64,000 bases of DNA, taken from assembly GCA_951406725.2 (NCBI GenBank), contig OX597840.1, positions 38,254,001-38,318,000 of the forward strand. Reading direction: 5' to 3'. The position numbers were made by a program. This stretch comes from Octopus vulgaris. Its lineage: Eukaryota. Below, piece by piece: positions 44,010 to 61,288 of this stretch; within the stretch, counting starts at the first letter, position 1; each line of letters starts with the position of its first letter.

Positions 44010-47000
44010 TAGCATTAAAGACCCGTCGTTGCCGGGTCGTAGTGATAGTGCATGTATATATGTGTACATATTACATGTACATCTATGTATATACATCTAC
44101 ACATAAAATACAAAATACAAAGTTATATCTTGATATCGCTTGTGATAACAATACTCAAAATATATAACAGGCTGGAATTGTAGGCCCGTCTCTTGTAATT
44201 TCGATCAATTGGATCTTGTCCTCCCTCTTGTATAGAAGTGTGGCTACAATCCGACGGCTGCACCGAAATTCATTTTGGGACTTTCTTCTATCGAAGACAT
44301 TTTAACAAAAATACATCCGTGTAAACGGTGAAAATATTGTCAATTTCCCCAAACAGGGACACAATTCAATTTTTAAACAATAACCAAAGCTCCTTCTCCA
44401 ATAGGGGTGGGGGTGGGGGGTTACGGTTTACAATTATTTAACAAATGCAACACAACAACGCTTCCCTTACGAGGAACCAACAAACGTGACAACAATAGTT
44501 AAACAGAAATAATAATAACAACAAACCTTACGGTAAACCAAAAAGCAGTACTCTGTTGAAGCTATAGGCCTTTATGGATCAGAAATAAACTAACAGCGGT
44601 ACTCAGTAGATATTTCTTTATTAAGATTATGAAAATCGATACACAGAAGGACAAATACAGGACATACATACAAAAACATTTAAGAGATTCGATTAAAAAT
44701 TATGTTTAAATTCGTTATAAAATAATAACCTTTGCATAACTAGTATAGCAAACAACAGTAGGTGAACTTGTAGTCTCACTGGAGCTTTTACACCCCGGCA
44801 ATTTATGAGGCCCTGCAGCTTCCACTTCCTCTCTCTTCTCCATGGTCAAGCTGGGTTTCTCACACCCACCTTTCTTTCCACTTCCTTCCATCTTTTCTCA
44901 TACACACCCCGCGGCAAGGCCCTCTTCTCCAGCCCCATTTTGCTCTTCAGATGATATCTGAAGTAAGTGAGCAAGCTGGGGCCGGAGACAAAGGACCCTA
45001 TCGCGGCTCCTTCCATTCTCGTTCTCCACATGCATTCCTTTACCACTGCAACCGTGCAGTGAAAACATGCCTCACCTTCCTTCGAGAGTCCAGTTGGCGG
45101 TATCATCTTAATCATAGACTCAGCCGACAGCTGTACTCGTCCCAGATGCGATAACACGTGTTCTGCGTAACTTATCAAGTCGGACAACTTCCGACAGTGA
45201 ACAAAAGCGTGCTGGACGGTTTCATCGTCCAACTCGCACCTTGGACACGTCGGTGGCACTTGAACTCCGTGCCGCGATAACTTCTCGCGAACAGGTAAAG
45301 CATTCCTGTAGCACTGCCAGGCCAGGGATCTTTGGAAATTATCCAAATACCCCGACCTGAAAGTTTTTTTAAACAGGTTGGCAAGCTGGTCTTCATCAAA
45401 CCCCAGAGCCCCTCCTAGAACGTCGTCATTTTTTGCTTCCACCAGCCCTCTATAAAATACCGAGGTGGTATTTCCGCAGCCGGCCTTGCCCGTCCTGTGG
45501 ATCAGCGTGAGTGCCTGTCGGCACTCCTTTTGCCATGGAGTCAGTTTCCATCTTTTGATGTAACCGGGTTTAAAATTCACTAAGGAGGCCGGTCTCGGGA
45601 AAAAACCCTCTGCCAGCGGACTCCACACCTTATCACCCTCCAGGTGGTGCCAGAGGTGCCTTAGCCTCAACGCATGTCTGCGCATCATCAACCAAGGCAT
45701 CCCTAACCCACCCTTTAACGGTTCTTGGCAGCAAACGGAGCGTCTCACAAGTGGCTTTCCTCCTTTCCACAAAAAGCGGAAAAGGATTCGTTCCAACTTG
45801 TTAAGCCATGAACCGGGGCAAGGGACGACGGTCAGGCGGTAGGTGATTACAGATGCAATGAACATCTGTACCACCTCCGCCTTTCCTTTCAAGGACAGAG
45901 ACCTTCCGGACCAGGTCCGTACTATGGCCTCCACCTTGCTCGTCACCTCACTCCAGTTCTTCTCCGTTTGGGAGTCTGGTCCAAACCAAACTCCCAGCAA
46001 CTTAACAGGGCCATCCGTCCAGTGTCCCACGACACTGGACGATATCGGCTTGCTCCTCCAGGTGCCGAGGCGCAAGCCAACCGATTTGTCCTTGTTAACC
46101 TTTGCTCCTGCCACCGCCTCGTATCCTCTGATAGCCTCCTCTACACAAGGTAGTTGGGCCTCTTTGGACACGATGAGGGTGACGTCATCCGCGTAAGCAG
46201 TAACCGTCCTCCCACCTCCGATTTCATCCGAGTTACTCCCCAGCCTCTCCAACTTTCGCAGCAGTGGCTCAAGAGCCAATACGTACAAAAGTGGTGACAA
46301 GGGGCACCCCTGACGCACTGAACACTTGATCGAAAACGGTTCCGTTAGGTAACCGTTTATCTGGACGGTGGACTTGATGCCGCTATACATAGCGGAGATC
46401 CACCCGCGAAATTCAGGGCCCAGCCCAGTCGCTTCGAGGACCGTCGCCAGGTACCCATGGTCTACCCTATCGAAGGCTTTACTTTGGTCTAAATGGACCA
46501 TTACCCCACCTTTGCCGGCTAATTTACCCACCCTATCTAAGGTGTAGCGTATAAGGTGAAGATTGTCCTGGATCGACCTGCCTGGAATTGCACATGTCTG
46601 TGCTCTCCCTACAAGTTTCTCCACGACAACCGTCAACCTTTTTGCTAACACCTTGGCCAGAATCTTTAACTCTACATTAAGTAGAGTTATGGGCCTGTAG
46701 TTACTAATATTATCCCCCTTGCTCGGGTCTTTCTGGATTAGCGTCACCACTCCCCGGCTTACAGAACTGGGGATTCTCCCATTCTGCTGCCAGTTCGTGT
46801 AGACGCCTGCCAGTATTCCCCCGAACAAGTCCGGCATACTTTGGTAAAACTCATAGGGCAGACCATCCAACCCCGGCGACTTCTCCCCGGCGCATCCGGC
46901 CAGTATCTCCTTTATCTCCGCGGGAGTGATCGCTCCCTCACAGCACTCCACTTCACGCCCCGCGAGCCGCGGTCCGCCGGCCAGGAAGTCCTTTAAGGCC

Positions 47001-59000: not shown

Positions 59001-61288
59001 CCTTGGTCACATCTCTTATTAGACGGTTCCTCAGGTGTTCCTGAAGAACCTCCTCCTTCCACTCGTTCTCCCCTACCTTCGCGAAACGAGCGGTCGCCTT
59101 CCCATCTGAGGTTCTACTATACAGTGGAAATCTCGCGAGTTTGCAGCATTTGTAAACTTTTTCATTTTTTTCATCAAAGGCTATAATTCTTTCGTTTTTC
59201 GATATGCACTTTTTGATGTCTTGTTTTATGGGGAGGGGTTTGGCAAACTGTTTTCCAATGAAAACAGTGCCATGGGGGTAGGGTTGGGGGATTTGTTTAA
59301 TGTGTGTGTCTGCTGTGTTTGTTGTTTTTTTCCTTGTTTGGGGAGGGGAGTCCTGGGTGTTCTCTTTTTTCTTTTGTGTGTGACTTGTGTGTAGTCCATT
59401 GGTTCTTTTGAATCCGTTTTCGTTTCCGTATTTGTCTTCTTCATTTGGTTGTTCTTGCTTGTTTCCTCCCCTTCAGTGACAGGTACACTTTGAGGAGGCG
59501 TTTCTTCTGTTCTTTTTTTCTTAATGCAGTTGGACCGGACGTGACCCTTCTCTCCACACTTGAAGCATCTGGGTCTACGTCCCTCCACCGACACTCTCAT
59601 GGACGTGCCGTCCTCATTAAAAATTCTGTCAGGCAGGCTCTCCAAGATCTTGTTCTCTGCCTGTACGAGGAGTTCCAAGGTCTGACCCTTCCAGCGTACC
59701 ACTTCCTTCCTTCTCATTTGCAGAATTGAAATTTCCCGCTCCATGTTGTGTAGTACCGCCGCTGCCACCCACATGATGTCGTACCCTCTGGGTATGTCAT
59801 CTACCACTAACTTTGCAGTTCGTTTCCCCATATACGAGGGTAACAACATGATGTCGTCGCTTTTTAAGGTTAACGACGACACCTCCTTCGCCACTTCTGC
59901 CGTGTCGAAGTGCACCTCTACCGTAGCACTACGTGCGCCTCTCGCGATGTGACGAATTCTGTCCCACACCGGGGACAGGCACTTCTCAACAATTTCGTTT
60001 TTCGCGTCCATAATCTTTTTTTCCTTAAAGCTATACACTTTATAAGTTACAATCCTTTCCTTGATTTCTTGCACTTTCGCTTGCGGCGGTACCAGCCTTA
60101 TCTCTCCTCCTTCCACCTTTACAAGATTCCTGTATTCATACAGCTGTTCGATCTTGAATTCGACCTCTATCATAGCGCCGCCCACCGCGGCCGAGAATGA
60201 CTGTTTGGTTACTGGGTTTTCCATGGTTTCACCTTTTCCCATCACGGGAAAATCGTCCTTCGACGTTAAGTCGAACTCCATCACCTCAAAGGTAGCAAAT
60301 TTCAAATAATACAAAATTTTCTGCCCCGTAGGGCGAAAATCACCGTTTCACAACGGGCACTGTTCAAAGCAGTTGGTACAAACAATAAATTCACAACTTC
60401 GACTCTCTTAAATGGGAGCAGCAATTTTCTCACAACGCAAACAGAAAAATAACGCAATTAACAGAAGCGGTACTCAGTAGAATGCTTAATGCTAGCTAAT
60501 TAGCAGATAATCTAATGTAAAAGCCTTGCACACCTCCATCTGGACAATTCCATTTCTGCACTTAAATTTTATTTTTTTATTTATTCCCATTCATGTGAAA
60601 CCACTGATTCAAGTTCAAGTCATTGATGCAATTGTATACCAATTGCTATTTTTACTTTTGTTATGTTACGATAATATTATACTTTAGTTTGATTTTAATT
60701 ATTACTTACGACATATAATTCAATTGTTATTATTATTTTTATTGTTAAAGTGAAAGTATCTGACATAAAATACAGAAATGTTTTTGTTTCACTTTTAACA
60801 CGTAATACTGAAATAGTGAAGAAGATATGATATTGCTATGGGCTCGCTCTAGGCAAGAAGTTGAACATGTTTTTGCCCTTGAAACTACATGGACCCTAAG
60901 TAAGGCATGTGTAAAATTTGAATGAAATTGGTTGTGTAGTTTTCAAGTTTTAGGTAAACACACAGACAGACAGACAGATAGACAGACACACATTCTCAGT
61001 TTTATGTATATAAAGATATTTATATATATATATATATATATATCGGAAGGTTTGGAGATGAGGTACAGGTATTATATATTAGAAAAATTGAGGTAATCAG
61101 ATCAGATGGTTCATATTTGTAGATATTTATTTATATATTACATTTTTTACATATATATCATATCATTCGGATTAGCGCTTGCTCCCATTCTAGTGGGTTT
61201 TCAAATCAAATCAGTTGTGGGTAGTTTGAACCTTTTTATAGTTTCGTAGTAGTGGGTGAGGAGGAAGTGAGACAGAGAGAAAATATGT

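Follow-up and report, generated by a model that had tools for sequence, protein, structure and literature searches.

Tandemly arrayed transposons are regarded as seeds of satellite DNA, and the telomeres of flies are built on head-to-tail arrays of long interspersed nuclear elements (LINEs). Most of the described cases are found at telomeres or in ribosomal RNA (rRNA) genes, or are rare dimers. The portions of three papers that underlie our comparison describe the closest systems. In Drosophila melanogaster, R1 tandems are separated by a 33-nt duplicated target, and they were explained by a double insertion followed by unequal exchange, a route described for other transposons as well (McGurk and Barbash, 10.1101/158386). 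In crocodilians, tandem copies of SINEU-3, a short interspersed nuclear element (SINE), sandwich a 16-nt target-site duplication (TSD), which was read as sequential insertion by Tx1-type LINEs (Kojima, 2015, PMC4494074). Telomeric LINE arrays are formed by HeT-A, TART and TAHRE in Drosophila and by GilM and GilT in Giardia (Casacuberta, 2017, PMC5537684). Here, we describe a 64,000-nt stretch of the Octopus vulgaris genome (GenBank assembly GCA_951406725.2, contig OX597840.1, positions 38,254,001 to 38,318,000), hereafter the window, in which three full-length LINE units follow each other head to tail around a shared 16-nt sequence. On balance, it is probable that this array arose by at least two separate integrations at one 16-nt site, followed by the gain of a further copy and then by gene conversion within the array. 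It is a small, young array at an ordinary site, whose steps still appear readable, from the two source lineages and the gain of one more copy to the conversion of adjacent units.

Layout of the array and its junctions

Three direct repeats of about 5.29 kb occupy positions 44595–60481, and 300-nt blocks recur in them at spacings of 5291 and 5303/5304 nt. The corresponding LINE units are all on the minus strand, and in the sense of the element the order is copy 3 (55206–60465), copy 2 (49902–55177) and copy 1 (44611–49885). With one 16-mer included, copies 1, 2 and 3 measure 5291, 5304 and 5276 nt (5.28–5.30 kb). All three begin at the same 5′ nucleotide, hence none of them is 5′-truncated. A blastn search of the whole window with unit 3 matched only the three units (95.9, 95.9 and 100%), copy 1 being 95.9% identical to copy 3 over its whole length, and tblastn with the two open reading frames (ORF1 and ORF2) found no further copy in the window. 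The G+C content is 45–53% inside the array versus 28–39% around it. The window contains no N, the junctions of the array are seamless and in phase, and the flanks available in the window extend over 44.6 kb on one side and 3.5 kb on the other.

The 16-mer, AGCGGTACTCAGTAGA on the plus strand, is exact at 44595, 49886 and 60466. In the sense of the element (minus strand), the first of these sites (T1, 44595–44610) forms the 3′ outer end of the array, the second (T2, 49886–49901) the junction between copies 2 and 1, and the third (T4, 60466–60481) the 5′ outer end. A fourth occurrence at 55190 (55190–55205) has a single mismatch; directly before it, at 55178–55189, is a 12-nt partial copy, likewise with one mismatch, and together they make up a composite junction between copies 3 and 2 (T3, 55178–55205, minus strand). 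Read in sense, T3 joins nucleotides 1–15 of the 16-mer to a copy of its final 13 nt that bears one change. Thus the 16-mer is present at every junction and at both outer ends, in one case as a variant composite, and the 5′ junction of copy 2 carries 12 nt that are missing from the 5′ junction of copy 1 (alignment gap block 1–12). The two outer 16-mers are identical, as predicted for one duplicated target site. By our own estimate, chance would place any one 16-mer about 3e-5 times in the 128 kb of the two strands. In the window the sequence is absent elsewhere on either strand, except for a 13/16 match at 44544.

The 3′ ends of the units are also uniform. An AATAAA signal on the minus strand is found at 44617–44622 in copy 1, 49908–49913 in copy 2 and 55212–55217 in copy 3, in each case 6 nt before the 3′ end and the 16-mer that follows it, and the 16-mer ends 22 nt past AATAAA in all three units. 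None of them carries a poly(A) tail in the DNA, and no energy-significant structure was detected at the 3′ end of the window element (z-scores of +1.6 and +0.9).

The earlier note on this DNA, made by a model from the sequence, had described a target occurring four times and delimiting units of about 5.29 kb, none of them truncated at the 5′ end. The measured unit lengths and the common 5′ start agree with this description. The four sites are there as well, three of them exact and the fourth in the form of the one-mismatch composite with its 12-nt partial copy.

The two outer flanks resemble neither each other nor the element. No Rfam family reached its gathering score in the window, and at E ≤ 1 the flanks gave no hit and the internal junction (54600–55700) just two chance-level ones, to a microRNA and a long non-coding RNA model. 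A multicopy RNA gene as the target was rejected on these results, and the same scans showed no self-cleaving ribozyme of the R2 type, similar to that of hepatitis delta virus, at the 5′ junction. Flanks belonging to a repeat or to another transposon were likewise rejected, as blastn of the flanks and of the joined flanks against the window returned only themselves, the 16-mer and low-complexity sequence. A decayed fourth copy in the flanks was considered and discarded, since 340, 63, 431 and 148 of 500 shuffles reached the observed alignment scores and tblastn found nothing. A telomeric position was rejected, given the lack of TTAGGG- or TTAGG-type repeats in the window and the ordinary sequence on both sides.

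Two small observations concern the immediate surroundings of the 16-mer. The 13/16 match (44544–44559) is on the same strand and 35 nt outside the array. By our arithmetic, chance alone would supply about 0.5 matches of this quality per window; to find one so near the array is therefore mildly odd, and nothing else around it resembles the element. Also, the bases that follow the last 16-mer in sense (44580–44594, GTTAGTTTATTTCTG) loosely recall the first bases of the element (TCTGTTAATTGCGTTATTTTTCTG), a resemblance to which shuffle-tested alignment lent no support.

Divergence among the units and their coding capacity

Copies 1 and 2 differ by 13 substitutions over 5291 sites (99.75% identity), and copy 3 differs from them by 198–199 substitutions over 5274 sites. 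This divergence is mosaic. Among the 192 substitutions private to copy 3, 144 fall in alignment columns 61–1679, none in columns 1680–3697 and 48 in columns 3698–5306. Expressed as rates, copy 3 differs from copies 1 and 2 by 8.7–8.8% in columns 13–1679 (5′ untranslated region (UTR), ORF1 and the start of ORF2), by 0–0.05% in columns 1680–3697 (2017 nt of ORF2) and by 3.3–3.4% in columns 3698–5306 (end of ORF2 and 3′ UTR), the corresponding values between copies 1 and 2 being 0.06, 0.05 and 0.68%. The differences between copies 1 and 2 are themselves clustered, with 11 of the 13 in the last 30% of the unit (P = 8e-5). The central block, whose coordinates were converted by hand from alignment columns 1680–3697, corresponds on the minus strand to 56797–58814 in copy 3, 51494–53510 in copy 2 and 46203–48219 in copy 1.

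The ratio of non-synonymous to synonymous substitution rates (dN/dS) separates two kinds of difference. Between the ORF1 of copy 3 and that of copy 1, dN/dS is 0.11 (79.5 synonymous and 38.5 non-synonymous changes), and the differences are distributed over the codon positions as 24/17/78, that is, 78 of 119 at the third position. In the last third of ORF2, dN/dS between copy 3 and copies 1 and 2 is 0.11–0.13 (25 synonymous and 10 non-synonymous changes against copy 1). Between copies 1 and 2, on the other hand, 6 of the 8 differences in ORF2 are non-synonymous and 2 synonymous (dN/dS of 0.9), a pattern distinct from the selected one (binomial P(≥6 of 8) = 0.007; Fisher P = 0.02) and one that fits neutrality. 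A dN/dS of about 0.11 means that copy 3 diverged under purifying selection, prior to insertion and while the lineages concerned were active. Two active lineages therefore gave rise, separately, to copy 3 and to the ancestor of copies 1 and 2. Copies 1 and 2 share a recent ancestor that already bore the frameshift in ORF2 described below. The independence of the units is thus seen for copy 3 with respect to copies 1 and 2, both in the dN/dS of 0.11 and in the mosaic.

The 2-kb block calls for a different explanation. With 0–1 pairwise differences over 2017 nt among all three copies, it is cleaner than even the 3′ region of copy 1 compared with copy 2. Most simply, it is likely a conversion tract formed after the array existed, and this near-identity of the three copies points to an exchange at the DNA level inside the array.

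Several claims of the earlier note bear on these comparisons. The private substitutions that it had listed for copies 1 and 2 were recovered at ORF2 codons 1001 (E/G), 808 (G/D) and 954 (L/R). It had proposed at least two independent insertions as opposed to one simple duplication, and the core of this, an origin from two or more separate sources, is borne out by the low dN/dS in ORF1 and in the 3′ third of ORF2. Its caveat that copies 1 and 2 could derive from a crossover or a read-through dimer holds, given their dN/dS of 0.9 and their common ORF2 frameshift. The pairwise dN/dS comparison that it had suggested was carried out, with the results given above (0.11 for copy 3 versus copy 1, 0.9 for copy 1 versus copy 2 in ORF2). 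The minus-strand orientation, the lack of any unit with both ORFs open and the mosaic divergence go beyond what it had reported.

The ORF2 of copy 3 (55440–58829, minus strand) is open over 1129 aa and contains the Pfam domains Exo_endo_phos (residues 8–223, E = 6.5e-13), RVT_1 (508–750, E = 4.4e-32) and a C-terminal zf-RVT (969–1016, E = 7.3e-10), the last one exceeding its curated cut-off. Its best relative of solved structure is human LINE-1 ORF2p (residues 7–867, E = 1.7e-67). The only open full-length ORF1 is that of copy 1 (48263–49699, minus strand, 478 aa). ORF1 has one zf-CCHC knuckle at residues 238–252 (21.1–21.5 bits for a cut-off of 20.8), and Pfam detected no RRM in it. A separate nucleic-acid-binding ORF1 with a CCHC knuckle is a trait of Tx1 and of plant-type L1 elements. 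The element thus shows three traits of the L1/Tx1 group, namely an apurinic/apyrimidinic (AP) endonuclease together with a reverse transcriptase (RT) in ORF2, a C-terminal zinc-binding domain and a separate CCHC ORF1. Judged from its domains it is an L1/Tx1-type LINE, an assignment made at the level of the group and above that of the named clades.

As assembled, none of the three units has both ORFs open. In copy 1, ORF2 (44846–48234, minus strand) is broken into two open segments of 413 and 663 aa by a G run that is 1 nt shorter than in copy 3 (G4 inside 46997–47014 versus G5 inside 57591–57609; indel at alignment column 2893). Copy 2 is shifted in both frames: it has the same G4 shift in ORF2 (inside 52288–52305) and, in ORF1, A8 (inside 54064–54088) where copy 1 has A7 (inside 48773–48796). 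In copy 3, ORF1 (58861–60281, minus strand) is shifted at an A6 run inside 59356–59378. Its N-terminal 351 aa are open, and the downstream part is open in another frame, residues 303–478 matching copy 1 at 91%. The G4/G5 difference sits within otherwise identical sequence of the copies. One-base changes in homopolymers typify the consensus errors of long reads, and the state of the ORFs is for this reason uncertain.

Relatives of the element and their arrays

In a large protein collection, the protein nearest to ORF2 (P0003) is 57% identical over 79% of its length, and the next ones are at 38% and 36%. The protein Atlas contains look-alike clusters with the same three Pfam domains. For relatives with genomic context, a prokaryotic genome collection was scanned with an ORF2 alignment, which returned 40 loci. 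Of these, 34 come from 16 contigs of CAXXMW01, a record titled “MAG: uncultured Arenicella sp.”, where MAG stands for metagenome-assembled genome (L001–L033 and L035; contigs 2–14 and 16–18). Every CAXXMW01 locus that was fetched consists of eukaryotic-type LINE arrays of about 50% G+C, and the flank of L007 is AT-rich (34% G+C) and bears microsatellites. Evidently, these contigs are eukaryotic DNA, and they look like mis-binned DNA of a host.

The window ORF2 forms a close group with P0003, P0004, P0005 and two CAXXMW01 families (L032-type and L023-type), with mutual identities of 36–58% and a next tier at no more than 31%. The ORF2 of the two CAXXMW01 families is 39–40% identical to that of the window, and both families form head-to-tail arrays, so that all three families of the group with genomic context (the window's and these two) lie in tandem. 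The relationship extends to ORF1, which is 24% identical to that of an array-forming relative over 199 aa up to the knuckle (E = 9e-13), with the same Pfam domains.

In CAXXMW01, 64 distinct 3′ ends were located, and 44 of the 48 spacings from one 3′ end to the next correspond to full-length units (6.3–6.9 kb). The others are two of 3.1 kb, one of 5.4 kb and one of 12.8 kb, the latter read as two units with one 3′ end unlocated. Units are 6.4–6.9 kb long and arrays comprise at least 6–11 of them, many with both ORFs open, including successive units in which both are intact (649 and 1155 aa). Subfamilies are 89–97% identical at the nucleotide level in ORF2, and about 67% identical or unalignable in ORF1 and the 5′ UTR, and different subfamilies adjoin within one array. 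This modular divergence is the same pattern as that of copy 3 against copies 1 and 2.

At the junctions, the end of the conserved 3′ UTR is followed by AATAAA, by a variable tail of 17–18 nt and by the next 5′ end. In three subfamilies this tail is far more variable than the adjoining conserved 3′ UTR, and the fillers of the junctions vary, also within one array. A two-unit array for which both flanks are available shows an 18-mer at its left end, in the middle and at its right end, which is the architecture of the window. Three 5′-truncated units also lie in tandem. Two of them, of 3.1 kb each, are found at the 3′ end of a long array (L003, 12168–15303 and 15304–18447) and have the same breakpoint and an identical junction, so the pair is a DNA-level duplication inside a retrotransposon array.

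Further observations were made on the relatives. In 12 of 12 3′ UTR ends (L016, L020, L031, L010, L029, L021, L022, L023, L015, L018, L003 and L033), a hairpin directly precedes AAATAAA. The sequences of its stems differ and yet remain complementary, and it is preceded by an invariant AAGGC/GCCTT hairpin. The second, AAATAAA-adjoining hairpin comes from single-sequence folds, RNAalifold on a MAFFT alignment in which the stems were misaligned having shown the first, invariant hairpin only. This pair of hairpins was not seen in the window element. Also, a LINE whose ORF2 is 27% identical (L034; ORF1 3410–4924, ORF2 4933–8421), on a contig titled Metamycoplasmataceae MAG, is placed about 200 nt downstream of a full U1 small nuclear RNA (snRNA) gene (3036–3199), with a second U1 after the LINE (9961–10137). 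It may be a U1-linked, Tx1-like element, and its position beside U1 snRNA genes is the lone hint at the Tx1 clade proper.

Origin of the array, its surroundings and known systems

The reading that we favour starts with an autonomous-type LINE of the L1/Tx1 group, for which target-primed reverse transcription would have led to two or more integrations at a single 16-nt site. As every integration would leave the 16-mer on both sides, the site would be offered again and copies would stack head to tail. Copy 3 would come from a different active lineage than copies 1 and 2, which themselves would go back to a recent ancestor that was defective already; the two would have arisen through a third integration of the same RNA species or through duplication at the DNA level. 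Once the array existed, gene conversion would have erased all differences over about 2 kb of ORF2, and the same conversion would have erased most of those between copies 1 and 2 over the first 3.7 kb. The 5′ junctions of LINEs are the variable ones. T3 accordingly resembles a product of the integration of copy 2, unlike the junction 5′ of copy 1, which is clean, and the extra 12 nt of T3 support 5′ junctions made separately. If T3 is such an integration junction, copies 1 and 2 would have integrated separately, and copy 3 would have come later, into the 16-mer upstream of copy 2.

Several points weigh against this account. Specificity for the 16-mer is putative: three units share it at a single locus of the family, the window holding no other copy of the element. 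The site is in no multicopy gene recognisable with Rfam, and its flanks are not repeated in the window. LINE proteins prefer their own RNA, which makes the ORF2 frameshift common to copies 1 and 2 awkward for two integrations; a DNA duplication would account for it more easily. Each of the three frame breaks is a change of one base in a homopolymer (A6/A7/A8 and G4/G5). A 12-nt slippage with one substitution would give the same product as T3. In CAXXMW01, right flanks are unrelated between the arrays of one subfamily, the tail that follows AATAAA ends at varying points, and the left and right ends of the contig-18 array mismatch, unlike a TSD. Given these unrelated flanks and mismatched ends, a short junction sequence may travel with the element.

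This last point leads to a second reading, compatible with repeated integration, which we consider possible but less likely. The 16-mer would be the terminal sequence of the element itself, and either the tail of the RNA would anneal beside an existing copy or the RT would jump to a second RNA, thus building self-homing arrays anywhere. The usual distance between AATAAA and the cleavage site is 10–30 nt, and the 16-mer, which ends 22 nt after AATAAA in all three units, falls in the interval from the poly(A) signal to the expected cleavage site; transcripts are therefore predicted to end in it. The lack of a poly(A) tail in the DNA fits with this, as do the 17–18-nt tail after AATAAA in three related subfamilies, more variable than their 3′ UTR, and the arrays of one CAXXMW01 subfamily between unrelated flanks. 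The extra 12 nt at T3 also resemble a second, variant 16-mer that arrived with the 5′ end of copy 2. A precedent is given by HeT-A, in which, according to the relevant portion of the review, the 3′ sequences of one unit promote the next one, like the repeat of a long terminal repeat (LTR) element (PMC5537684). Against it, the outer 16-mers are identical although the lineage of copy 3 is 8.7% diverged in the adjoining 5′ UTR, which is what a duplicated genomic site predicts. The slippage mentioned above explains T3 equally well, and the tail variants of the relative, which track the type of the downstream unit, are explained too by unequal crossing-over with breakpoints in ORF2.

The earlier note had proposed insertion into a regenerated TSD. 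The part of this claim that stands is the involvement of at least two sources; at one locus, target duplication and a sequence carried by the RNA look the same, and the array ends in the related family argue partly for a 16-mer-like sequence carried by the RNA of the element. In its general form, the idea would be that the window element and its relatives normally exist as internal head-to-tail arrays, and that their transcripts end in a transduced tail of 16–18 nt that guides priming or a template jump. We consider this possible but doubtful. If it were true, the element would home to itself, forming arrays at arbitrary chromosomal places with an LTR-like terminal redundancy, an internal counterpart of the “promoting in tandem” of HeT-A, and the self-homing tail would explain together why there is no A tail, why the site is used again and why the elements live in arrays. 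If the RNA carries the junction sequence, the lineage would illustrate a way for a LINE to direct insertion to its own copies and acquire a terminal repeat, and would bear on the origin of LTR-like structures and of LINE-derived satellites. A plain target duplication would make the window a clean but ordinary example of double insertion.

It is unlikely that the whole array entered at once as a concatemeric cDNA, made by RT jumping between RNAs or by read-through of a donor array. In its favour, every unit is full length and the junctions coincide to the nucleotide, the arrays of the relatives could yield read-through transcripts, and template jumping is within the capability of the R2 enzyme. 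Nevertheless, copies 1 and 2 seem to have diverged by decay in place, and the 2017-nt block, with 0–1 differences versus 3–9% elsewhere, would be left unexplained, a later conversion still being needed.

An assembly artefact, in which a locus of one or two copies was extended by stringing together its two haplotypes or by mis-joining reads, appears very improbable. Copies 1 and 2 differ by 0.25% only, the frame-breaking indels are changes in homopolymer length and the differences are oddly clustered, all of which would suit it. The junctions are, however, seamless and in phase in a window free of N, junctions T2 and T3 are not alike, the divergence of copy 3 is far too great for an allele of copies 1 and 2, and the arrangement recurs many times in an independent long-read assembly from another organism.

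Hardly credible, finally, is a single insertion multiplied solely by DNA-level tandem duplication (unequal crossing-over or replication slippage) with divergence in place: the 99.75% identity, common frameshift and neutral differences of copies 1 and 2 would agree with it and the two truncated units of the relative with the same breakpoint and junction show that the process occurs, but the selection test contradicts it, as differences acquired in place would be neutral and copy 3 has a dN/dS of 0.11 with a third-position excess, while 8.7%, 0% and 3.3% along one unit are unlike uniform decay and the first crossover would have had just 16 nt of homology.

Outside the array, no ORF in the window carried a Pfam family above cut-off (14 open frames tested). 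Three tandem copies of a 184-nt unit (87% matches) are present at 39542–40092. Long microsatellites are found at 6179–7567 ((AT), about 697 units) and 27716–29543 ((AAT), about 607 units), where the G+C content falls to 11–14%, along with many shorter ones.

In the open-access literature that we searched, we found no description of internal full-length arrays of L1/Tx1-type LINEs, nor any of the CAXXMW01 LINE families. Compared with known systems, and as far as the cited portions of the three papers extend, the window array shares features with each of them. As for R1, its LINEs are arranged head to tail and split by what is probably a duplicated piece of target. The R1 site, however, is in a multicopy rRNA gene, whereas that of the window is AT-rich and in no recognised gene; in this respect it also departs from the classical site-specific LINEs, its site being in no recognisable multicopy gene. 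Most of the non-LTR tandems reported in the first study are tail-to-internal (10.1101/158386), unlike the units of the window, which are all full length. With Tx1 and SINEU-3 it shares an APE-type LINE group (AP endonuclease) in which many members have a target preference, as well as a tandem around a 16-nt sequence, a probable TSD in the window. In the SINEU-3 case, by contrast, the target is inside an abundant DNA transposon and the tandems are those of a SINE (PMC4494074). The telomeric LINEs likewise form head-to-tail arrays of one orientation by repeated retrotransposition, the 3′ end of HeT-A serving the next unit, but they are found at chromosome ends with oligo(A) junctions and common 5′ erosion (PMC5537684), while the window array is internal, has no A run and is complete at its 5′ ends.

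There is also a likeness in organization to the CAXXMW01 arrays, which have the same two-ORF architecture, the same Pfam domains, AATAAA with a short tail, and a 5′ UTR and ORF1 that diverge more than ORF2. Their units are longer (6.4–6.9 kb), their arrays are longer, and they differ by the pair of 3′ hairpins and by junction tails that vary within an array. That two related families with 39–40% ORF2 identity live in long head-to-tail arrays in the contigs of another organism is new here. What sets the window array apart from the known cases is thus its internal, non-genic site, the full length of all its units and a tandem habit that is common to a divergent lineage.

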